Shown: positions 14,342 through 47,227, numbered from the stretch's first letter. The stretch: DNA of 47,325 bases from Chloroflexota bacterium (GCA_016210245.1 JACQUR010000063.1:1-47325); one strand, 5' to 3'. Numbers and translations are program-made. The notes: generated by a model from the sequence alone, not told the origin.

Positions 14342-14554
14342 GTGCGCGTCTTTAGCCGCGGGCCTCTGCGTCAGGCGCTTCTCACGCCCCTGGCGCTGGC
14401 GCTGCTGCTCTGGCTCTGCAGCCTGCCGCTGCTCGCGCTCATCGCCCTGCCCCTCCTGGGCGAGCGTGCTACTCTGGTCCTTGCCCTCGCCCTGCTGGGG
14501 GGAGAGTTGCTGCTCTGCTGGTTCCTCTGTTACGGGCGCCGGCGGCTGCCATAA
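14342..14554 (+). CDS. small hydrophobic (2-TM) hypothetical protein, antisense to the dead tail of the copA remnant
   Basis: GGGAGG at 14331-14336, then GTG at 14342. Leu-rich TM-like sequence. No family assignment. Confidence 0.25.
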   Translation: MRVFSRGPLRQALLTPLALALLLWLCSLPLLALIALPLLGERATLVLALALLGGELLLCWFLCYGRRRLP

Positions 14555-15680
14555 CGGAGGGCGTTGATCCGGGTGACCGTGCTCGTCGAGGCGGGTGATC
14601 CTTGCCCCTGCCCGCTCGTCCTGACATCGACTCGTCCACCGCCGAGTAGCCCTCCAGGACAGTCCCATCCACCGGGATCTGCTCGCCCGGGCGCACCACG
14701 ATGACGTCCTCGACCTGCACCTGCGCGGCCGGGACCTCCACCTCCTGGCCGTCGCGGAGCACGCGGGCGATCCTGGGCCGCAGCTTCAGGAGCTTGCGGA
14801 TGGCCTCCGAGGTCTGGCCACGGGTGAGCGCCGCGAGGTAGCGGCCCAGGATGATGAAAGCCGTCAGCAGCGCCGCTGCCTCGTAAAAGGTCGCCCGCTC
14901 GCCTCCCAGGCCGAGCTGCGGCCAGAACGTATTGATGACCGCGATGAAGTACGCGGCGCCGATGCCGGAGGCGTACAGGAGGTTCATGTCCCGCACGCCG
15001 TGGCGCAGCCCCTGGTAGGCGTTGACGAAGAACTGGCGCGCAGGGCCGAACACGATCGGTGTGGTCAGGAGGAACAGCACCCACCGGTAGCCGAGGAACT
15101 CCGGCACGATGGCGGGCAGGATCCAGTACTCCCAGAAGGTCCCCAGCATCACCAGGAGGGCCAGGGGCCAGGAGATGAGCATGTTGCGCCCCTGGCGGGC
15201 GATCTCCCGCCGACGAGCCTCCCGCTCCCGGTCGATGGCCTCGGCCTCCTTGACCTTCTCGGCGGCCTCGTAGCCCAGCTCGCGGATGACCTGGAGCATC
15301 TCGGCTGGCCCTGTGACCCCTGGGTAGTACTTGACGGTAGCGGTGGCCGCCGGGAAGCTGACGCTGGCCCTGGTGACGCCCTCCATCTCTCTGAGAGCCC
15401 GCTCGACGAGCTGAGAGCAGTGCTCGCTGCTCATCCCGAAGATGGACAGCGCCACCTCCTCCTGAGGAACCGAATAGCCGACCTCGGCGATGGCCTTCAC
15501 CAGGGCCAGCGGCCTCACCCGGTTGGGGTCGTAGACGATGGTGGCGCTCTGGGCGGCAAAGTTGACGCTGGCCTCGGCCACGCCCGGGAGGGCCTGGAGG
15601 GCCCGCTCGATGGTCCGGACGCAGGAGGCGCAGTCCATGCCGCCCACCGGCAGCACGAGGCGCCGGGTGGCCACCGTCAT
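14469..15680 (-). pseudogene. copA: copper-translocating P-type ATPase, N-terminal ~350 residues only
   Basis: Two HMA domains (GGMDCASC; degenerate GMSSEHC) and TM1-4 up to ...VDGTVLEGYSAVDESM. Homology ends near 14622, before the TGES/CPC/DKTGT regions, and the frame then runs into nonsense. Confidence 0.75.
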
Positions 15681-15982
15681 GCCCGCGCCTCCCGAGCCCC
15701 GCTCCAGGCGTTGTAGAGCAGCGCCCAGACCGCGCCGAACAGCCATGCCCCGATCGCCACCGTCACCAGGCCGATGATGAACTGGGGCAGCGTGACGAAC
15801 AGCCTGCCCGGGACGAGCGCTGATGCGTCCAGGAAGAGCCAGGCCCCGTACAGGGCCAGCAGCGGCCCCGGAGCGACCAGGACCAGGAACGCTCCAAGCG
15901 CATAGCAAGCAGCTCCAACCACCGCCAGGGCGGTGGCGAAAGGCGCGACCGCGATCGCGGCCCGTCGCTCAACGCTGATCAT
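15677..15982 (-). CDS. small 3-TM membrane protein translationally coupled to the copA remnant
   Basis: 101 aa, hydrophobic. GGAGG RBS. The stop overlaps the copA ATG (ATGA at 15677-15680). Confidence 0.5.
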   Translation of the reverse strand: MISVERRAAIAVAPFATALAVVGAACYALGAFLVLVAPGPLLALYGAWLFLDASALVPGRLFVTLPQFIIGLVTVAIGAWLFGAVWALLYNAWSGAREARA

Positions 15983-20430: not shown

Positions 20431-20586
20431 GTCGACCCGGCGAATCAGGAGTCACAGTGTACTGGCGCGCACCCTGTCAATAACCAGCGTACCGTCCGGT
20501 CCTGAAGGGTGCCTGAGCCCCTCCTGAGGGCTGGCTGAAGAAACGAGTCACTTAACGGGTTCCCGTCGTCTCCGCTGAGCCAACGG

Positions 20587-21156
20587 CTAGCGTGTCCATT
20601 GGAACACCCTTTCCGGCACACCGGCCACGTCGCGGATGACGAGCTCGACGGTGCGCGTGTCAGGCCCGATCAGTGGGCGGCCCTCGGCGGTGGTCGTGGG
20701 AAAGGCGAGCGTGCCGCTGCGGTGATGGCCGCCCTGCGGAGCATCCCAGCCGCTCGGCAGCGCCTCGAGCCCCTGGTCGGTGCGCAGCCTGGCCAACTGT
20801 CGCAGGTCGTACCGGTCCAGGTCGACGGAGTGGGTATCCAGCACGACTGCGAACACCGGTCCGGCACCAGGGTTGGTCCACGTCACCGCGACCGTGACCT
20901 GCTGCGCCTCCCTCGTCTGCGTCGCCGTGCTGAACGGCGCGACCGCATCAGCGCTGGCAGCAGGGGACGGTCTGGCGCTCAACGGCCTGTCCCGGGTGGG
21001 AGGTTCCACAGCAGCCGGGCTCTCGCTCTCTGGCGCGGGTGTAGCGGCGCTGCTGCAAGCCGCCAGCGCCAGGGTAAGGAGCGCTGCCAGACCGACCAGT
21101 GCCCGCGGCCCCAGGCGCTGTCCTCTCCTGCAGCGGTGCCTTTGTAGACTTCCCAT
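20587..21156 (-). CDS. lipoprotein of unknown function (beta-rich C-terminal domain with a GGHH motif)
   Basis: Signal peptide plus lipobox LTLALAAC. ...VTVAVTWTNPGAGPVFAVVLDTHSVDLDRYDL...WDAPQGGHHRSGTLAF.... ATG at 21156 follows GGAGG. Confidence 0.55.
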   Translation of the reverse strand: MGSLQRHRCRRGQRLGPRALVGLAALLTLALAACSSAATPAPESESPAAVEPPTRDRPLSARPSPAASADAVAPFSTATQTREAQQVTVAVTWTNPGAGPVFAVVLDTHSVDLDRYDLRQLARLRTDQGLEALPSGWDAPQGGHHRSGTLAFPTTTAEGRPLIGPDTRTVELVIRDVAGVPERVFQWTR

Positions 21157-21292
21157 CACGCCTCCACACGCCTGCAAGGGATCGCGGCTCGCACCGCGTC
21201 CAAGAGCACGGTAGCGCCCTCTGCTGAGCGGAGGCTGAGGCGCGCCTGAGCGCGGGCTGAGGGCGAGGCGGCGGCGGGATGGCATGTTGAGA

Positions 21293-21311
21293 CTACTATG
21301 GGGTCATAGGA
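21293..21311. promoter_or_regulatory. candidate operator CTACTA-N7-ATAGGA upstream of the blaI-like gene
   Basis: Same architecture as the sites at 24175-24193 and 24270-24288. It lies just upstream of an extended -10-like TGGTATTAT (21316-21324). Confidence 0.4.
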
Positions 21312-21343
21312 GACCTGGTATTATGAGCAGTAGGGAGGGGTGG

Positions 21344-21772
21344 ATGAAACGCACCTACCAGAAACTCACGCGGCCCGGTGAGGGGCTCGACAAGCTGTTG
21401 GGCGAGCTCGAGCGCGAGATCATGGAGATCATGTGGGACCGTGGCCAGGGCTCGGTGCGTGACGTGCTCGAGACGCTGAACGCGAGCCGTCCCGAGGCGC
21501 AGCGGCTGGCCTATACGACGGTAATGACGGTGATGGCGCGGCTGGCCGAGAAGGGACTGCTGCGGCGTGCCCGGGTGGGCAAGGCCCACGCCTACGAGGC
21601 GGCGGAGAGCCGCGAGGCCTTCCTGGCCCGCGCCTCCCAGGAGATCGCGCGCCAGCTCGTCGAGGACTTCGGAGAGGTGGCCATCGCCGGCTTCCTGAAC
21701 GTCCTGGAGCGGGTTGCGCCCGAGCGACTGGCGCAACTCCGTCGTCGAGGGCAGTCGCGTGGTGAGCCCTAA
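21344..21772 (+). CDS. BlaI/MecI/CopY-family winged-helix repressor
   Basis: ...LGELEREIMEIMWDRGQGSVRDVLETLN...AYTTVMTVMARLAEKGLL.... GGGAGGGG RBS before ATG 21344. No C-terminal Cys motif. Confidence 0.8.
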   Translation: MKRTYQKLTRPGEGLDKLLGELEREIMEIMWDRGQGSVRDVLETLNASRPEAQRLAYTTVMTVMARLAEKGLLRRARVGKAHAYEAAESREAFLARASQEIARQLVEDFGEVAIAGFLNVLERVAPERLAQLRRRGQSRGEP

Positions 21773-22676
21773 TCGTACCTTTGCCCTGCTGGTCGTGCTG
21801 AGCAGCGGGCTGATCGCGGTCATCGGCTGGTCCGCCCACCATTTGCTGCTGGCGGGCGCGCCGGCGCTGGCCAACGCCAGCGCGTGGCCGAGCGCGAGCT
21901 GCCTCCTGCTCCCGCTGGACGGAGACTACCTCCCGCACCTGGCGAGCTACCTCTTCCTCCTGGCCATCGGGGCGGGGACGCTCGTTGGCCTGCGGGCGCT
22001 GGTGCAGCAGCAGCGCCAGACGCAGGCGCTGCTGCGCGCCTGCCTCGCCGCGCGGTCCCGCCGCCGACGGGCTCTCGATCGCCTGGCGTGGCGCCTCGGC
22101 CTCGAGGGGCGGCTGGACCTGGTCGACCTCGCTGCGCCGGTGGCTTTCTGCTACGGCTACCTTCGCCCCCGCATCCTGGTCAGCACGGGGCTGCTCACCC
22201 TGCTCCCTCGCCCGGAGTTGGACGCCCTGCTGCTCCACGAGCGCGAGCACCTGCGCCAGCGCGACCCACTCAAGGTCGGCCTGGGCAAGCTGCTCGCCTC
22301 GGCGGCCTTCTTCGTCCCCGCCCTCGGCGCCCTCTACCGGCGCTACCTGGTGGAGAAGGAGCTCGCCGCCGACCAGGCCGCTATCCGGGCGCAAGGCGGC
22401 ACCACGCCTCTGGCCGCAGCGCTCGTCCGCCTCCTGGACCACGGAGCGTTCCCCAATCCGGTGTGGTCCGCCGGGGCGAGCGAGGCGATCGAGGCGCGCA
22501 TCGACGCCTTGCTCGGCGATCCGGTGCGGCTGCGGCTGCGCGTCGGCCGCACCCCCCTGCTGGGCAGCGTAGCCGTCGCCCTGCTGGCCGCGCTCCCGCT
22601 GCTGGCTTCGCCGCTGCTGCTCGAGGCCGCGGTCTCGAGCCAGAACGTCACGGCCGGCTGCCACCTGGCGACCTGA
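21759..22676 (+). CDS. BlaR1-like M56 family membrane metallopeptidase without an extracellular sensor domain
   Basis: HExxH as LLLHEREHLRQRDPLK. N-terminal TMs and a C-terminal TM. The GTG start overlaps the end of blaI. Confidence 0.75.
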   Translation: MVSPNRTFALLVVLSSGLIAVIGWSAHHLLLAGAPALANASAWPSASCLLLPLDGDYLPHLASYLFLLAIGAGTLVGLRALVQQQRQTQALLRACLAARSRRRRALDRLAWRLGLEGRLDLVDLAAPVAFCYGYLRPRILVSTGLLTLLPRPELDALLLHEREHLRQRDPLKVGLGKLLASAAFFVPALGALYRRYLVEKELAADQAAIRAQGGTTPLAAALVRLLDHGAFPNPVWSAGASEAIEARIDALLGDPVRLRLRVGRTPLLGSVAVALLAALPLLASPLLLEAAVSSQNVTAGCHLAT

Positions 22677-22764
22677 CGGTGGCCCGCTGTCTGGGCATGA
22701 CCTACGACGACGCGCTCTGGTTCTGGAACTGGGCCGAGATCGGGACGCGGGTGGCCATCCGCCC

Positions 22765-23178
22765 CTAGCTACGCTGCTGCCCTTCTTGATCGGACTGGGC
22801 CCGCGTCTCGGCCACGCGGGCAACTGCCTCGGCCTCGCGCACCGCCGGGGAGGTGGCGGCTTCCAGGGCCGCGATCTCTCGGGCAAGGGCCTCCTGCCGG
22901 TCTTGCAGGCTCGCTAGCTGCGCCTTCAACTCGACCAGTTGCTCGTCGCGCGAGACTTCCTGGCCGGCGGGCCGACCCGTCCGGGCCGGCTCGGTGCTGC
23001 AGTGGCCGCCGTGCCCGCCGTGCCCGCCCCGCATCATGAAAAGCATCATGAGCGGACAGGCGGCCACCAGCAGCAGCGGCAGCACCGAGCCTACCAGCCC
23101 GGGCGCCACGGCGAGGACGACCAGCCCCGCCACCGCCAGCCCCAGCAGAATGTTTCGGTTCATCGAGATGCCACGCAT
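22765..23178 (-). CDS. DUF2933-like small membrane protein with a His/Gly-rich segment and coiled-coil tail
   Basis: ...LLLVAACPLMMLFMMRGGHGGHGGHC... followed by ...QLVELKAQLASLQDRQEALAREIAALE.... Confidence 0.55.
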   Translation of the reverse strand: MRGISMNRNILLGLAVAGLVVLAVAPGLVGSVLPLLLVAACPLMMLFMMRGGHGGHGGHCSTEPARTGRPAGQEVSRDEQLVELKAQLASLQDRQEALAREIAALEAATSPAVREAEAVARVAETRAQSDQEGQQRS

Positions 23179-23307
23179 TGCTCCGTACCTCCCGTGTGCC
23201 CTGTTCGCGTGCGCACTGTTCTGTCGCCCGCGCCAGTATGCCTGTCGAGCGACGCCCGTCTTGTTTTCCGCTTGCCCTCCTTGCACCTGGCGTGGGCCTC
23301 GGCCCGG

Positions 23308-24069
23308 CTACAGGAACCAGTAAGTCACCGTGTCATTGAGCCCGGCCAGCACCAGCACCACCGCCGCGGCCGGGCGAAGCCAGGCGTCGACGCGGCGCGC
23401 GCCCGCCAGGTAGCCTTTGGTCGCGCCAACTCCTGCCGCCAGCAGGCCGGCCAGCCCGAGCAGCGGCAGCGTCGTGCCCAGGGCGAACAGCCCCGGGTAG
23501 ACCACGCCAACCGGCGAGCTGAGGGCCAGCGGGATGGTGAGCCCAAAGAAGAGCAGGAACAGGGTAGGACAGAAGGCCAGCGAGAAGGCGATCCCGAGCA
23601 GGAAGGCGCCGCGGGTCCCGGAGCCGGCCCGGTCCTCCAGCCAGCCGGCCACGCCCTGGCCGAGCGAGAAACGCAGGTGTACCAGCCCGAGCAGGTACAG
23701 GCCGAGCAGGATCATCAACGGCCCGAGCGCCTTGCGCACCACGACGATGGCCGGGATGGAGCTCTGGGCGAGCTGGCGGCCGGCCAGGAGCACCGCCAGC
23801 CCGAGCAGCGTGTAGACCAGCACCTTGCCCAGCAGGTAGGCCAGGGCGCCGCGGGCGACGGCGCGCCGGTCGCCGGCCTCGCGGGCCACATAGGCCAGGG
23901 CGCTGGCGTTGGTGGTGAGCTGGCAGGGGCTGGTGGCCCCGATCAGGCCAAAGAGCAGCGCGCTCACGAACGGCAGGCCAAGAGCGTCGGCCAGGACGCG
24001 CAGCGGCTCCGCCACCGCGGCGTTGAGCGTGCTCAGCAGCGCGTACCACTCGACAACCAGCTCTCGCAT
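23308..24069 (-). CDS. DsbD_2/CcdA-like cytochrome c biogenesis-type transmembrane protein
   Basis: 253 aa, about 6 TM. ...LLFGLIGATSPCQL... and ...GIAFSLAFCPTLF... Cys-containing TM motifs. Confidence 0.6.
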   Translation of the reverse strand: MRELVVEWYALLSTLNAAVAEPLRVLADALGLPFVSALLFGLIGATSPCQLTTNASALAYVAREAGDRRAVARGALAYLLGKVLVYTLLGLAVLLAGRQLAQSSIPAIVVVRKALGPLMILLGLYLLGLVHLRFSLGQGVAGWLEDRAGSGTRGAFLLGIAFSLAFCPTLFLLFFGLTIPLALSSPVGVVYPGLFALGTTLPLLGLAGLLAAGVGATKGYLAGARRVDAWLRPAAAVVLVLAGLNDTVTYWFL

Positions 24070-24174
24070 CTCCCGGTGCTCCTGAACTCACCTGAGGAGT
24101 TAGGCCTGGTCGTCCTTCTCGACGCGGAGCAGGCGCTTGCGGGCCAGGCGCGCCACGGTGCTCATGGCCGCAGT

Positions 24175-24193
24175 CTACTACAGATGCGTAGGA
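24175..24193. promoter_or_regulatory. candidate operator CTACTA-N7-GTAGGA
   Basis: In the divergent intergenic region between the DsbD_2 and tlpA operons. Same spacing as the sites at 21293 and 24270. Confidence 0.4.
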
Positions 24194-24250
24194 AAAGCAA
24201 CAGGTGTCGCCTCGGCACCCGGTCCTGGCCGCGGGCCGGCCATTGGGCCA

Positions 24251-24288
24251 TTGAAAGGGCCAGCCCATACTACTATAATGGCGTAGTA
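24251..24288 (+). promoter_or_regulatory. sigma70-like promoter TTGAAA-N17-TATAAT overlapped by operator CTACTA-N7-GTAGTA
   Basis: TTGAAA at 24251-24256 and TATAAT at 24274-24279. An 8-bp inverted repeat CATACTAC/GTAGTATG (24266-24273 / 24283-24290) brackets the -10. Confidence 0.55.
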
Positions 24289-24464
24289 TGTTCACCGGGC
24301 GGGCTGGAGGACGGTGAGGCTGGGCATGACGGCGTGCTCGTCCGAAAGTGGATTGGCCCGATCGGCGAACGCGAGCTCAGCGGCGCACTCGCGGAGCTGG
24401 GACTGTGACCATCGACCACCTCCTCCACCTCGGGTCCCCCGTCTCTGCTCCGACGAGGGGATCG

Positions 24465-24986
24465 ATGCGGCGCCTCTCCCTGGCCGGGGGGCTGGTGCTG
24501 GCGGCCCTGGCTGTCCTCGCGTACCTCGCCCTGGGCACGAGCGCGGCCCAGGGACCCACCGCCGATGCGGGGCCACGGCCGCTCGCGCCGGATTTCCTTG
24601 CGCCCACCTTCAGCGGGGGAGCCAGCCGCCTGTCCGATTTCCGGGGCCAGCCTGTGGTGGTCAACTTCTGGGCCTCCTGGTGTCCACCCTGCCGGGCTGA
24701 GGCCCGCGAGCTTGAGCACGTCTGGCAGGCGTACCGGGACCGGGGTGTTGTCTTCCTCGGCATCAACGTCCAGGACACGGAGGTCGGGGCACGGACCTTC
24801 CTGGACGAGTTCGGGGTGACCTACCCTAACGTCCGGGACGTGGCCGACGAGGTGACCGCCGCCTACGAGGTCAGCAGCATCCCGACTACGGTTTTCATTG
24901 ACCGGAACGGGCGTATTGTCAGCTATCGGCTTGGGCAGGTGAGCGAGCAACAGCTTGTGGCGCGGCTCGAGGAGTTGCTGCCATGA
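24465..24986 (+). CDS. TlpA/ResA-like membrane-anchored thioredoxin-fold thiol:disulfide oxidoreductase
   Basis: N-terminal TM, ...VVVNFWASWCPPCRAE... (WCPPC). GAGGGGA RBS before ATG 24465. Confidence 0.85.
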   Translation: MRRLSLAGGLVLAALAVLAYLALGTSAAQGPTADAGPRPLAPDFLAPTFSGGASRLSDFRGQPVVVNFWASWCPPCRAEARELEHVWQAYRDRGVVFLGINVQDTEVGARTFLDEFGVTYPNVRDVADEVTAAYEVSSIPTTVFIDRNGRIVSYRLGQVSEQQLVARLEELLP

Positions 24987-25065
24987 CTCGCGCGGCTGGC
25001 GCTCGTGCGACGCGCCCGCGAGACCGGGGCGCTCGGCTCGAGCGCCCGAGCGCTGGGGGGCGGGG

Positions 25066-25575
25066 ATGGAGCTGATCTGGGGCCTGCGCGGCCAGCTCCT
25101 GGCCGCGCACTGGCTGCCGCTGGCGAACCTCGCCATGGCGCTCACCCTGGCCGGGGCCGTGGCCGCGCCCGCCCTGCGCGCGGTCGAGCTCGATGTCGCG
25201 GCCGAGGCGATCTACACGCTGTACCTGTTGCTCTGTCCCCAGCGCCCGAGCCACTCGTACTTCCTCTTTGGGTACCAGCTCGCGCTGGAACAGCGGCCGG
25301 TCGCCATGGTTGCCGTGCAGCTCGCCGCAGGGCTCGCCTACATCCTGGTCCGCGGCCGGCTCCGCCCCCTCGATTGGCGCTGGCTGGCACTGTTCAGCCT
25401 GCCGCTCGCCTGGGACGGCTTCAGCCAGATGTTCGACCTGCGCGACTCGGACTGGCTCACCCGAAGCTGGACCGGCGGACTGTTCAACCTGGCCCTCGTC
25501 TGGTGGGCCTACCCGCGCCTGGACCGGGCACTCCTGCCCGCGCCGACGCTGAGGAGGGATAAGGCTGAGTCCTGA
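25066..25575 (+). CDS. DUF2085-family membrane protein
   Basis: ...LLLCPQRPSHSYF... resembles the DUF2085 CHQRPERSF signature. 4-5 TMs. Confidence 0.6.
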   Translation: MELIWGLRGQLLAAHWLPLANLAMALTLAGAVAAPALRAVELDVAAEAIYTLYLLLCPQRPSHSYFLFGYQLALEQRPVAMVAVQLAAGLAYILVRGRLRPLDWRWLALFSLPLAWDGFSQMFDLRDSDWLTRSWTGGLFNLALVWWAYPRLDRALLPAPTLRRDKAES

Positions 25576-25647
25576 GTGCTGAGTGCTGAGTCCTGAGTGA
25601 AGCCGCGGGACCTCTACTCAGCACTCAGCACTCAGCACTCAGCACTG
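25564..25647. repeat. heptamer-repeat hairpin: (CTGAGTS)x5 - loop - (CACTCAG)x4
   Basis: The left arm 25564-25599 starts in the last codons of the DUF2085 gene. The right arm 25614-25647 ends 5 nt before the ccmE RBS. About 31 bp stem with two C:C mismatches. Confidence 0.9.
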
Positions 25648-25661
25648 AAGGAGAGAGGAGG

Positions 25662-26117
25662 ATGGAGATGGCGACCCTGGAGGTAACCTGCGCGCCGAGC
25701 GAGGTCGCGCGCGCAGGACGGCGGTTCCCGCTCAAGATCGCGAGCGCTGGCGGGGTCCTGCTCCTGGCCATGGCGTACCTCGTGCTGACCGCGACCAGCT
25801 CCTCCACCGTCTACTACCTGACCGTGCCGGAGCTGCGCGCGCAGGGGATGGCTCCTGGGAAGCTCGTCCGGGTGAGCGGGGACGTGGCGGAGGGCAGCAT
25901 CGTCCGCGATGGGACGCGGGTCCGCTTCGCCATCGCCGACTCGTCCGGTGACCTGCCGGTGGCCTACGCGGGCGTCGTGCCTGACATCTTCGGCGAGAAC
26001 GTCCAGGTGGTGGTCGAGGGCCGCCCGGACGCCGAGGGCACCTTCCAGGCCACGACCCTGCTGGCCAAGTGCCCGTCGCGGTTCGACTCGGCGCCGGATG
26101 CAGGGCCACAGGCATGA
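25662..26117 (+). CDS. ccmE: cytochrome c maturation haem chaperone CcmE, Cys-variant (LAKC instead of LAKH)
   Basis: TM anchor, ...VYYLTVPEL..., OB-fold pattern ...VRVSGDVAEGSI...VRFAIAD.... The haem-binding position reads TTLLAKCPSRF (Cys codon 26070-26072). Confidence 0.8.
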   Translation: MEMATLEVTCAPSEVARAGRRFPLKIASAGGVLLLAMAYLVLTATSSSTVYYLTVPELRAQGMAPGKLVRVSGDVAEGSIVRDGTRVRFAIADSSGDLPVAYAGVVPDIFGENVQVVVEGRPDAEGTFQATTLLAKCPSRFDSAPDAGPQA

Positions 26118-26755
26118 CGGTCGGTAGCCTCGGCCCGCTGCTGCTCGTCCTGCTGGTGGTGCTGGGGGTCGGTCCCCTGCTGGCCTGGCGGCGGACCTCG
26201 GCGCCGAGCCTGTGGCGCAACTTCCGCTGGCCGCTGCTGGTGGCCGGCCTGGTCGGCCTGGCGCTCCTGGCGCTGGGCCTGGGCCAGGTGCTGGCCGTCC
26301 TCGCCTTCGCGAGCACAGCCTTCGCCCTGGCCACCATCGGCCTCGAATACTGGCGGGGGGTGCGCGCGCGCCACCAGGCCGCCGGCGAGCCATACCCGCT
26401 TGCGCTGGTGCGTCTCGTCCGCCGGGCACCTCGCCGCTACGGTGGCTACCTGGTACACCTGGGCGTGGTCTTCATCGCCCTGGGTGTCATCGGCTGGTCC
26501 TTCTACCAGCGCCAGGTCGCCGACACGCTGGCCATTGGCGAGAGCCTGACCGTCGGACGCTACGCCTTCACCTACCAGGGTCTGTTCGAGCAGCCGGAGC
26601 CGGGCGTCCAGGTGACCCGGGCGCGGCTGACGGTGCGCGCGGACGGTGCCAACCTGGGCGAGCTGGAGCCCGAGCGGCGGGTCCACCGCAACTGGGAGCA
26701 GCAGCCGGTGACCGGGGTGGCCTACCGCAGGGAGGTGGTCGCCAGTGAGGTCTAA
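26114..26755 (+). pseudogene. ccmF: ccmF, only the C-terminal ~210 codons (in-frame internal deletion, or an unusual split gene)
   Basis: ATGA overlap with ccmE. ...GPLLAWRR..., ...RRYGGYLVHLGVVFIALGV..., ...ERRVH... match the last third of CcmF. The WWD/haem-handling N-terminal ~430 residues are absent. Confidence 0.6.
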
Positions 26756-27362
26756 GATGCTGGCTCTGGCCCTCGCCCGGGCGCTCCTGGCCGCTGCCGG
26801 ACGGGGACTGTGGGGGCAGCCACAGGGGGCGGCCCCTGGGCAGCCACAGGGGGCGGCCCCTGGGCAGCCACAGGGGGCGGCCCCTACGCTCGCCCTCGCC
26901 CTGGCGCTCCTGGCCGCGAGCGGACCAGGGGTGGCGCTGGCGGACAGCCACCTGGAGCGCGAGGCGTGGGAGATCGCCAGGCTGCTCCGTTGTCCTATCT
27001 GCCAGAACCTGTCGGTCGCCGACTCCCCCTCGCAGCTTGCCCAGCAGATGCGCGACCTGATCCGCAAGCAGCTCGAGGCCGGCCAGACGCGGGAGGCGAT
27101 CCTGACCTACTTCGTGGAGCGCTCCGGCGAGGAGGTGCTGCTCGACCCGCCCAGGACCGGCTTCAGCCAGGTGATCTGGTGGGGGGCGGCGGCAATCCCG
27201 CTCGGCGGGGCAGCGCTGGTGGCGCTCCTCCTGCGCCGGTGGTTGCGGCGCCGGGCCCCGGACCCCGGCCCGGAGCTTGGCCTCTCCCAGGAGGAGCTCC
27301 AGGAGTACGAGGCGGTGCTCGAGCGTGAGCTGGAGCGTTCGGAGGAGAGGAGCGTGTGGTAG
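26745..27362 (+). CDS. ccmH: cytochrome c maturation thiol-oxidoreductase CcmH (LRCPICQ) with a repeat-expanded signal region
   Basis: ...EIARLLRCPICQNLSVADSPSQLAQQMRDLI...ILTYFVERSGEEVLLDPP... plus a C-terminal TM. GTG 26745 lies 9 nt after GGAGG; an alternative ATG is at 26757. Confidence 0.8.
   Translation: MRSKMLALALARALLAAAGRGLWGQPQGAAPGQPQGAAPGQPQGAAPTLALALALLAASGPGVALADSHLEREAWEIARLLRCPICQNLSVADSPSQLAQQMRDLIRKQLEAGQTREAILTYFVERSGEEVLLDPPRTGFSQVIWWGAAAIPLGGAALVALLLRRWLRRRAPDPGPELGLSQEELQEYEAVLERELERSEERSVW
26814..26885. repeat. 3 perfect tandem copies of a 24-bp unit GGGCAGCCACAGGGGGCGGCCCCT inside ccmH
   Basis: Units at 26814-26837, 26838-26861 and 26862-26885. They are in frame and encode (GQPQGAAP)x3. 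Each unit contains the hairpin CAGGGG-GCGG-CCCCTG. Confidence 0.95.
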
Positions 27363-27898
27363 AGCTCTTCGCCGTCCTGCTCGCGGCCGTGGCGCTGGGC
27401 ATGGTGGCGCTGGTCCTGGCCCCGTTGCGCCGCCCGCCCACCCCGGGCCTGGAAGCCGCCGACCCGGCCGCGGACCTGCTGGCCGCGCGCGAGGCCGCGC
27501 TCCAGGCCCTCCGCGAGTTGGACTTCGACTACCGGCTCGGCAACCTGGCCGAGACCGACTACCGCGCGCTGCGCGAGCGCCACAAGCTCCAGGCGATCGC
27601 GCTGCTGAAGGCGACGAACGGTCGCTCGGAGGGAGAAGCAGACGCGCTGGATGCGGAGATCGAGCGGGCGGTGCGCGCGCCTCACCCTGGAATTGCGGGG
27701 CCTGCCTACCCGCCCTCCCTGGGGAGCGGCCCTCGACCTGGTATCCGTGCCGCTGTTCGCCCCCGCGGCGCTCGCTCTGGCCCTGGCGGTCGGCGTCGCC
27801 TGGACGCTGCACGCCCGGCGGGCAACCACTCCCGTGGCTGGCGGACCCACGGCCGAGCTGGAGCGCGAGACGTTGCTGGCCGCCCTGGTCGACCTTGA
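27356..27898 (+). CDS. CcmI-like N-terminal module (TM + helical region); 3' boundary uncertain
   Basis: MVELFAVLLAAVALGMVALVLAPLRR...REAALQALRELDFDYRLGNLAETDYRALRERHKLQAIALL. Sense is lost after ~27690. The start overlaps the ccmH stop. Confidence 0.4.
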   Translation: MVELFAVLLAAVALGMVALVLAPLRRPPTPGLEAADPAADLLAAREAALQALRELDFDYRLGNLAETDYRALRERHKLQAIALLKATNGRSEGEADALDAEIERAVRAPHPGIAGPAYPPSLGSGPRPGIRAAVRPRGARSGPGGRRRLDAARPAGNHSRGWRTHGRAGARDVAGRPGRP

Positions 27899-46379: not shown

Positions 46380-46823
46380 TCACCGAGCACCCTCTCGGCC
46401 GCCTCGACCCCCGTCCAGCATAGCCAGGAAGATGGCGGGGCCGAAGATTGGTATGCCCTCAAACGGACTGAGGACCAGCAGGTCATCATCCCCGCTGACG
46501 ATTACGTCGGCCTTTCCGTCTGTGGCCGCTTCCAGCACCTTGTTGTCCTTCGGATCCCGACATGCGGTGATGCTGCGATCAGGCGCCACCGCTTCCCCGC
46601 ATCGCAGGATCACCCTCAGTGCCGCCCCCACGTCTTCGTGCGACAGACGATACTTGTCTCGAATGCGAGGCCGGCTGAGCACGTCTACCAGTTCCGCCAG
46701 CAGCGGCTTGGAGTAGAGCAACGTGTAGTTCCGATTTCGCAGGCGTTTGACGACTGGCCCTACGGTTCCCTCCGGCCTGATTATGGCGCGCACCAGGATG
46801 TTGGTATCTACTACGGCACGCAT
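46380..46823 (-). CDS. PIN-domain toxin (type II TA, TIGR00305-like)
   Basis: MRAVVDTNILVRAI...DPKDNKVLEAATDGKADVIVSGDDDLL... with the conserved acidic residues. Confidence 0.8.
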   Translation of the reverse strand: MRAVVDTNILVRAIIRPEGTVGPVVKRLRNRNYTLLYSKPLLAELVDVLSRPRIRDKYRLSHEDVGAALRVILRCGEAVAPDRSITACRDPKDNKVLEAATDGKADVIVSGDDDLLVLSPFEGIPIFGPAIFLAMLDGGRGGREGAR

Positions 46824-47104
46824 TAGCCTTGGAGTTCCGCTCGAGCCGCCTCGACATCCGCGGCCACCTCCTCCTCGCTGTAACCGGCATTCTCCGCGGC
46901 CATACGAGCCAGCAAGCGGTCAAAGCGGGCAAAGACCTCCTGCTCATCCAGCTCTTGAAAACGGAGGAAGTCCGCGTAGGACAGCAGCACGGCTTCAGGG
47001 CGGCTGCCGCGGGTGAGGACGTAGGGAATGCGCTTGTGGGTAACTTCGTCCAGCACTGCCCGGAACCGCCGCTGAAGCTCCGTCACGCCGATGATCTTCT
47101 GCAT
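46823..47104 (-). CDS. Phd/YefM-family antitoxin
   Basis: MQKIIGVTELQRRFRAVLDEVTHKRIPYVLTRGSRPEAVLLSYADF.... GAGGAG lies 6 nt before ATG 47104; the ORF extends to 47131. 1-nt overlap with the PIN gene. Confidence 0.75.
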   Translation of the reverse strand: MQKIIGVTELQRRFRAVLDEVTHKRIPYVLTRGSRPEAVLLSYADFLRFQELDEQEVFARFDRLLARMAAENAGYSEEEVAADVEAARAELQG

Positions 47105-47227
47105 GTCCTGCTCCTCACGATCGAGACTCATATTCCACTTTGTATTCTACCTCGGATGCCCCCCGCTGCTCTGGCGAGGCTGCCATGTGGGCTGGCGGGA
47201 TCTGCCCAGTACTGGTGCGTGGAGGAC

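Follow-up and report, generated by a model that had tools for sequence, protein, structure and literature searches.

Most annotated BlaR proteases lack a beta-lactam sensor, and their signal is an open question (PMC13492132). The role of such repressor-protease pairs in heterotrophs "remains to be elucidated" (PMC10141476). In the cyanobacterium Synechocystis sp. PCC 6803, the PetRP pair shows copper-dependent degradation of the repressor PetR both in vivo and in extracts, and loop residues of the protease PetP have been proposed as copper ligands. The present study concerns a contig of a Chloroflexota bacterium (GCA_016210245.1, JACQUR010000063.1:1-47325; the whole 47,325-base stretch is called the window), in which a blaI-like repressor gene is followed by a gene for a BlaR1-like M56 membrane protease. 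Three dyads lie at the predicted promoters of this pair and of two groups of genes for thiol reduction and cytochrome c maturation. The locus was read as a BlaI/BlaR-type proteolytic switch with a copper-or-oxidation-sensing cluster, at a probability of about 0.6.

By analogy, PetRP is the closest functional precedent. Both pairs combine a BlaI/CopY-family repressor without the CopY Cys motif with an M48/M56 protease without a penicillin-binding domain, and in both the protease start overlaps the repressor stop. Moreover, both would use an inverted-repeat operator with a short spacer, that of PetR lying between the -35 and -10 of the repressed promoter, and a short extracytoplasmic loop as the sensor, and both are tied to copper and c-type cytochromes. 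However, the PetR operator is GAC-N5-GTC, compared with TACTAY-N6-RTAGKA in the window. PetP has two Met in the loop between transmembrane (TM) helices TM2 and TM3, whereas the window protease has Cys and His in its loop and a C-terminal Gly-Cys-His tail, and no conserved Met was found in its loop in the clade alignment. PetRP controls a set of four, petE and petJ as well as slr0601 and slr0602, in contrast with the thiol-reductant and ccm genes of the window and the copper-detoxification genes of its relatives. The petRP mRNA is constant with copper, while the window system has a predicted operator at its own promoter. Furthermore, PetRP is known from experiment to be triggered by copper, whereas the copper link of the window pair comes from genomic context. 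An earlier sequence-only reading of this DNA had called the switch uncharacterised; that description does not hold for its kind, as PetRP, a BlaI/M56 pair that lacks a sensor domain, is triggered by copper. What appears to be new is the N6 operator class, a thiol/ccm/copper regulon outside cyanobacteria, and a conserved Cys/His patch on the protease.

The other described systems are less similar. The BlaI/BlaR1 and MecI/MecR1 pairs of Staphylococcus aureus belong to the same two families with the same gene order, and their proteases share the HExxH...ExxxD zinc centre in a cytoplasmic or re-entrant region. In BlaR1, too, the helix that runs into the protease is preceded by an extracellular loop, and this equivalent loop transmits the signal. 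However, the window protease lacks the C-terminal penicillin-binding sensor, no beta-lactamase or PBP2a target is present, and the operator half-sites are unlike those of S. aureus. The BlaI/BlaR pair of Mycobacterium tuberculosis (Rv1846c/Rv1845c) and its M. abscessus orthologues resemble the window pair in having a BlaR without a sensor domain and in autoregulation, which in the window is predicted from the operator at the system's own promoter. The M. tuberculosis targets are reported to be ATP synthase, blaC-sigC, and membrane proteins, and they differ from those of the window. The M. tuberculosis operator appears to agree with the half-site TAC(T/G)AC found here. The spacing is N6 in the window clade compared with N5 in most of the family, and derepression of the M. 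tuberculosis system has been reported with beta-lactams. In the work cited in PMC13492132, the M. tuberculosis BlaI regulon is tied to respiration and energy metabolism, beyond beta-lactamase.

CopY of Enterococcus, Streptococcus, and Lactococcus shares the DNA-binding family and a copper-related output. In CopY, a C-terminal CxCx4CxC motif detects Cu(I)/Zn(II) directly, and a partner protease is absent (PMC11672702), whereas the window repressor has no Cys. CenIR of Clostridioides difficile and PvmSR of Pseudomonas aeruginosa likewise consist of a BlaI-like repressor and an M56 protease without a transpeptidase domain; their signal is unknown, and their regulons are small or envelope-related. 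They differ in the extracytoplasmic parts, CenR having a disordered C-terminal domain, and in their regulons, which comprise a peptidoglycan hydrolase in one case and virulence and iron genes in the other. Neither has been described with a Cys/His cluster or a thiol/copper regulon.

The motif CTACTA-N7-RTAGKA (CTACTANNNNNNNRTAGKA), which the sequence-only reading had placed at three sites, was searched on both strands of the window. Exactly these three matches were obtained (21293-21311, 24175-24193, and 24270-24288), and none was found in 100 dinucleotide-preserving shuffles. The hexamer CTACTA/TAGTAG itself occurs eight times in the window, and only these three of the eight copies are paired with a second half-site at the required distance. 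A shift by one base turns the motif into a two-fold dyad, for which TACTAY-N6-RTAGKA is the better notation. The putative operator 1 (21294..21311, TACTAT-GGGGTC-ATAGGA) ends 33 nt before the start codon of the blaI-like gene. The putative operators 2 (24176..24193, TACTAC-AGATGC-GTAGGA) and 3 (24271..24288, TACTAT-AATGGC-GTAGTA) are located between the divergent dsbD_2 and tlpA genes. Operator 3 sits inside an 8-bp perfect inverted repeat, CATACTAC (24266-24273) and GTAGTATG (24283-24290), which brackets TATAAT (24274-24279) as had been described before. Reading site 3 in the N9 register of this repeat was set aside, as N8/N9 matches among the homologous loci were mostly shifted N5/N6 readings; with all 22 sites of the closest clade at N6, the N6 register was adopted, and the working register of site 3 is probably TACTAT-N6-GTAGTA rather than the 8-bp/N9 repeat. 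The centres of operators 2 and 3 are 95 bp apart, approximately nine helical turns, so that cooperative binding or looping would be possible.

Because the motif had been defined post hoc, evidence was sought from other genomes. A total of 160 loci with repressor homologues (up to 55% identity, many phyla) were collected by scanning contigs of genomes and metagenomes. A half-site matrix was trained solely on 101 sites upstream of blaI homologues in these other genomes. It ranked the three window sites first, second, and third in the window, with 29.6 bits for operator 3, 24.5 bits for operator 2, and 20.0 bits for operator 1. In comparison, the top scores of 200 Markov-simulated windows had a mean of 8.1 bits and a maximum of 17.5 bits. 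In a local null of 5000 dinucleotide shuffles per intergenic region, the probability of a score of at least 20 bits was 0.0002 for the region of operator 1, and no shuffle of the operator 2 region reached it (0/5000). A fourth candidate at 46809 (TACTACGGCACGCATTA, 13.2 bits) was rejected as chance; it runs across the start codon of a PIN gene resembling vapC. A vapBC-like toxin-antitoxin pair was noted at 46380-47131 (minus strand), in which the PIN-domain open reading frame (ORF) overlaps a Phd/YefM-like antitoxin ORF.

In the 160 loci, the regions upstream of blaI homologues carried TACTAC-N5-GTAGTA-like palindromes, and the half-site was TAC(T/G)AC in actinobacterial and other loci. Perfect dyads were counted by spacing: 54 were N5 and 12 were N6, with 1-4 for each other spacing. 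In 93 of 157 loci, a dyad lay between -200 and +10 relative to the start of blaI, and a second one followed the M56 gene directly in 62 of 112. The dyad accompanies blaI-M56 pairs in many phyla and at widely differing GC contents. N5 prevails in most of the family (L001-L160), and N6 occurs in the Chloroflexota clade of the window (L161-L172) and in some others such as L007; the geometry of the repressor dimer therefore seems to differ between lineages. On these grounds, the three dyads are very probably operators of the BlaI-like repressor. In Clostridium thermocellum, BlaI-family proteins autoregulate and recognise inverted hexamers separated by 5 nt (PMC8457756). It could be argued that the dyads are promoter elements or sites of another regulator whose co-occurrence with blaI is coincidental, given that TACTAT fits the -10 pattern TAnnnT and that the sites coincide with promoters. 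However, a strict two-fold dyad with a fixed N5/N6 spacing is not a promoter property, and neither the association with blaI-M56 pairs across phyla and base compositions nor the autoregulation just mentioned is in line with this idea, which is very improbable.

All three dyads overlap or abut predicted promoters. The consensus scan detected the plus-strand promoter before tlpA that the sequence-only reading had proposed (24251..24279, TTGAAA-N17-TATAAT); it matches 11 of 12 consensus positions and was the only consensus match in 21100-24500 (mean of 0.0 in shuffles). Operator 3 overlaps its -10 TATAAT. On the minus strand, a promoter is predicted at 24172..24200, with TTGCTT (24200-24195) and TAGACT (24177-24172) separated by N17; operator 2 fills this 17-nt spacer and overlaps the -10. 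For the blaI-M56 operon, an extended -10 is predicted on the plus strand at 21316..21324 (TGgTATTAT), 4 nt downstream of operator 1, and the consensus scan found no full -35/-10 pair there. A mini-ORF of 21 residues (MSTVARLARKRLLRVEKDDQA; 24100..24165, minus strand) was read from the sequence ahead of dsbD_2. Its ATG follows the predicted -10 TAGACT by 6 nt, which puts the predicted transcript start on the ATG itself, and the transcript is accordingly predicted to be leaderless. The mini-ORF is absent upstream of the DsbD_2 orthologue in one relative (L163).

The genes downstream of these promoters were assigned with Pfam, and the identities given previously for the BlaI-like, M56, DUF2933, DsbD_2, and tlpA genes all agreed. 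The dsbD_2 gene (23308..24069, minus strand, E 6.8e-21) encodes a CcdA-like membrane carrier of thiol-disulfide electrons with SPC and FCP motifs. The next gene on the same strand encodes a DUF2933 membrane protein (22765..23163, E 2e-10) with the His-rich stretch GGHGGHGGHC; its membership in the dsbD_2 operon is uncertain because of a 144-nt gap after dsbD_2. On the plus strand, the tlpA-like reductase (24465..24986; AhpC-TSA E 5.8e-26, Redoxin E 4.1e-24) is membrane-anchored, with a thioredoxin fold and a WCPPC motif. It is followed by DUF2085 (25066-25575), ccmE (25662-26117), a ccmF_C-like gene (about 26069-26755), ccmH (26745-27362), and an ORF of unknown function (27356-27898), all on the plus strand. 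This cluster (25066..27898) has gaps of less than 90 nt, and tlpA-DUF2085-ccmE-ccmF_C-ccmH is inferred to be co-transcribed. No Rfam match was obtained at E <= 1 in 20500-25000, and the 180-nt tlpA leader therefore holds no known riboswitch. As a side observation, the only CcmF-related gene of the cluster, between ccmE and ccmH, encodes a 228-aa CcmF_C-like protein; no full-length ccmF and no ccmABCD adjoins ccmE/ccmH in the window cluster. Short CcmF_C-like homologues also occur with ccm genes in L025, L029, L056, L113, and L121.

The repressor gene (21344..21772, plus strand) encodes 142 residues and matched Pfam Penicillinase_R (PF03965) over residues 19-133 with E 1.7e-22 and 80.4 bits against a cut-off of 22.6. 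The N-terminal winged-helix DNA-binding domain and the C-terminal dimerisation helices both agreed with the family profile. The only PDB sequence match was 2g9w (E 1.9e-12), deposited as a "conserved hypothetical protein", which we take to be M. tuberculosis Rv1846c/BlaI. The repressor contains no Cys and one His, and the orthologues in the clade are essentially free of Cys. The CopY C-terminal CxCx4CxC (or CxC) motif is likewise absent from the 142 residues, as the sequence-only reading had said, and with no Cys a direct metal switch of the CopY type is excluded. The possibility that the repressor is nevertheless a direct metal sensor like CopY and that the protease is irrelevant to induction draws on the shared Penicillinase_R family and the copper-rich neighbourhood, but it is scarcely credible given this composition and an M56 gene that overlaps blaI and is conserved alongside it. 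S. aureus BlaI is cleaved at N101-F102 by its cognate protease (PMC9834060). The window repressor reads ...AIAGFLNVLERV in the region aligned to this site, and the region is conserved in the clade as DFGEAAVAGFL[NS]VL.

The M56 gene (21762..22676, plus strand, 304 aa) starts with GTG, with an alternative GTG at 21759, and overlaps the end of blaI (stop codon 21770-21772) by 11-14 nt. The order of blaI followed by a co-oriented M56 gene was the same in all 10 clade loci. The product scored 40.6 bits for PF05569 (Peptidase_M56; cut-off 31) and 33.2 bits for M48, and its HExxH and ExxxD residues (H159, E160, H163, E200, and D204) were invariant in 49 sequences. A sequence-level PDB search with the protease gave no match; the best fold matches of its AlphaFold2 (AF2) model (predicted template-modelling score 0.78) were the S. 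aureus BlaR1 structures 8exs/8exq. In the model, an N-terminal TM helix is followed by a 23-residue loop, a long second helix that runs into the protease core, and a last TM helix with a 17-residue tail. Pfam detected no penicillin-binding domain, and this tail is all that follows the last TM helix. In BlaR1 the HExxH domain is cytoplasmic; together with the basic residues after the second helix, this puts both loop and tail on the extracellular side.

The conserved residues of this outer face are H26, H27, C47, H59, C300, and H301. The HH pair is at the outer end of TM1, Cys47 lies in a WPxxxCLLLP loop, and the tail ...HN(I/V)VAGCH carries C300 and H301. The loop Cys was present in 92% of 53 family members, most of which also have a Cys at or near the C-terminus. 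In 58 aligned clade proteins, C47 and H59 were each found in 40 and C300 in 38; the carriers are nearly all of the orthologues with at least 53% identity. Accordingly, the term "sensor-less" used in the sequence-only reading stands with regard to a penicillin-binding domain and falls with regard to sensing as such: the outer-face Cys/His cluster is a candidate sensor, and we infer from it that copper or thiol stress may be the signal. A side branch of M56 proteins (P0046-P0062; L106, L116, L127, and L132) lacks the loop Cys and shows the His motifs VPHAxHV and ...GGxHQVRLV; its ligands or its signal may therefore be different.

The regulon was further compared in the closest clade, which comprised 10 contigs (about 115 kb, 64-72% GC) with protease orthologues of 53-68% identity. 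By the protease, the nearest named relatives are metagenome-assembled genomes (MAGs) of Chloroflexi/Dehalococcoidia. The clade loci contained 22 sites of at least 15 bits, all N6 and none inside a called gene. Six loci had sites upstream of blaI, and others lay before TlpA-like redoxins divergent from blaI (L163 and L166). In L163, a DsbD_2 orthologue with 59% identity to that of the window has an operator 22 nt upstream of its start. In addition, sites preceded YtkA-DUF4396-multicopper oxidase (L161), DUF305-P-type ATPase and YHS-blaI (L167), CsoR with an accompanying GNAT gene, YkuD, and a pair of LysM proteins whose Cys-peptidase domains are NlpC/P60 or C39_2. The clade contigs also encode CopC/CopD, HMA, cupredoxin, Lgt, and DUF2085 proteins. 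A GNAT protein of about 345 aa (Acetyltransf_1) was preceded by an operator in 5 of the 10 loci (L165 5338, L166 8984, L168 9318, L170 6827, and L172 8906); no homologue of this recurrent gene was found in the window.

Across the wider family, a first gene after the post-M56 operator could be called in 58 loci and was assigned with Pfam. These first genes included FtrD-like proteins in 7 loci, DsbD_N in 5, an HMA-DsbD_2-cupredoxin fusion in 3, a redoxin in 3, and SCO1, CcmE, and MerB in one each. A Thioredoxin_3 protein, a plastocyanin-like protein, MacB-type permeases, and methyltransferases were also found after the M56 gene. Of the 160 loci, 20 contained TlpA homologues and about six contained ccm genes. 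The MerB case is in a KSB1 MAG (L008 2600-4390), where the gene after the operator encodes an alkylmercury lyase (E 1.1e-64), a target related to a thiophilic metal. Lack of conservation of the sites in orthologous promoters had been named beforehand as a refuting outcome; the operator was instead found to recur before the same gene classes. Together with the matrix ranks and the 93 of 157 loci, the DsbD_2 and TlpA operators of the relatives bear out the link that the sequence-only reading had drawn between the repressor and the dsbD_2 and tlpA-ccm promoters. The conservation observed in silico extends to the operator, the target classes, and the Cys/His residues.

In the proposed switch, a dimer of the Cys-free repressor would bind the three TACTAY-N6-RTAGKA operators and so control its own blaI-M56 operon, the mini-ORF-dsbD_2(-DUF2933) genes, and tlpA-DUF2085-ccmE-ccmF_C-ccmH. 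In the resting state, the envelope thiol-reductant and cytochrome c maturation genes would be kept low. The Cys/His cluster of the co-translated M56 protein would bind copper or another thiophilic metal, or be oxidised, and the cytoplasmic protease would thereby be activated, cleave the repressor, and derepress the regulon. The output would be restored reductant flow through the CcdA-like and TlpA proteins and cytochrome c maturation, and in relatives also copper export and oxidation. Binding to DNA, proteolysis of the repressor, and the nature of the signal are deduced, at different strengths. Derepression through M56-mediated proteolysis is likely. Copper or another thiophilic metal bound by the cluster is the leading candidate for the signal, at a little less than even odds. 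A thiol-redox (disulfide) change as the signal is doubtful, and the remaining chance falls to other signals, cell-wall stress among them. The copper and thiol readings would overlap, as periplasmic thiols and enzymes that depend on Cys are damaged by copper.

The alternative that survives best keeps the same switch and regulon but makes the signal a periplasmic thiol-redox imbalance, registered without a metal by a disulfide that forms reversibly between the Cys of the loop and that of the C-terminus. The Cys pair would then report over-oxidation or a shortage of reductant. The co-occurrence of the two Cys across many phyla is consistent with this, as are some members in which the second Cys, without a His nearby, sits where the last TM helix reaches the outer face. 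Moreover, the window targets DsbD_2, TlpA, and CcmH are thiol-disulfide proteins, and the family targets include DsbD, thioredoxins, and SCO1. However, clade-invariant His (H26/H27, H59, and H301) accompany the Cys, and one sub-branch (P0046-P0062; L106 and L116) has His in place of Cys; metal ligation therefore fits better than a disulfide. Many targets are also specific to copper, such as the multicopper oxidase, the P-type ATPase, YHS, and CsoR, in a context of CopC/CopD, HMA, and cupredoxin. A purely disulfide-based signal is accordingly rather unlikely.

Indirect sensing of cell-wall damage or beta-lactams, with the thiol and ccm genes as part of a general envelope stress response, was also considered. 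The nearest solved homologue of the repressor is 2g9w, the M. tuberculosis BlaI, whose partner BlaR has no sensor domain although the regulon is reportedly derepressed by beta-lactams. The operators of relatives before YkuD, NlpC/P60, and LysM-C39_2 enzymes point in the same direction, and the window M56 gene is followed by a YkuD relic of 29 codons (...ARCLGMTYDDALWFWNWAEIGTRVAIRP*; 22679..22768, plus strand; Pfam YkuD positions 123-146 of 146, E 0.0057). In L170, an intact YkuD gene adjoins M56 and has an operator upstream, so that the relic of this L,D-transpeptidase looks like a mark of ancestral synteny outside the switch. Against the cell-wall explanation, no beta-lactamase or penicillin-binding protein gene adjoins any operator in the window or the 10 clade loci, and the Cys/His cluster has no counterpart in the beta-lactam sensing mechanism. 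The cell-wall targets are all Cys-dependent enzymes, which copper or thiol stress would fit equally well. This explanation is improbable.

Several observations weigh against the copper-or-oxidation switch. The GNAT, methyltransferase, and MacB-type permease genes in the regulon have no obvious link to copper or thiols. The P1B-type ATPase ORF of the window (14469-15908, minus strand) contains two HMA domains but just the beginning of an E1-E2 ATPase domain, and an 817-aa relative in L167 aligns to it over residues 2-313 only; the copper pump of the window is truncated, as a pseudogene or by rearrangement. In the window protease tail, Gln stands where most orthologues have a further His. The AF2 model is good in the protease core, but its predicted local distance difference test score (pLDDT) is about 50 in the loop and below 50 in the tail, the parts that would have to bring C47 close to C300/H301. 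Furthermore, the minus-strand promoter and the blaI extended -10 are sequence readings below the scan threshold. M56 homologues reached 68% identity in the protein database and repressor homologues at most 55% in genome and metagenome contigs, and no near-identical second genome was found in the contig scans and the protein database for a base-level comparison of promoters. Consequently, site conservation applies at the level of clade and family, not per base. The window sequence was found in four groundwater-metagenome DNA runs and in no RNA run.

The remaining neighbourhood was also inspected. Upstream of blaI, the minus strand encodes a lipoprotein, a cupredoxin, a second CcdA-like DsbD_TM protein, Lgt, and an HMA protein. 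The divergent lipoprotein gene (20587-21156, minus strand) had no family in the Pfam scan, and its product showed no significant similarity to YtkA or to the other operator-adjacent genes of the relatives; no convincing minus-strand promoter was found at site 1. An ABC1 kinase and the HMA-bearing P-type ATPase fragment are located farther away in the window.

A wider reading, which would cover a multi-phylum class of BlaR-like M56 proteins, is tentative. In this class, the loop Cys and the C-terminal Cys-His would directly sense copper or thiol oxidation and govern an envelope regulon through TAC(T/G)AY-N5/6 operators. The regulon would comprise thiol-disulfide reduction through DsbD/CcdA-like proteins, TlpA, and SCO1, the maturation of cytochrome c, detoxification of copper, and cell-wall enzymes that depend on Cys. 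The locus and its relatives offer a defined operator, a coherent predicted regulon, and a few outer-face Cys/His residues to mutate. If the proposed switch is true, the principle of PetRP, copper-triggered proteolysis of a repressor, would extend from cyanobacteria to Chloroflexota and other phyla, and copper or thiol stress would be linked to the control of cytochrome c biogenesis. More than 90% of BlaR homologues have no known input, and a large part of these would gain a signal if the wider reading also holds.

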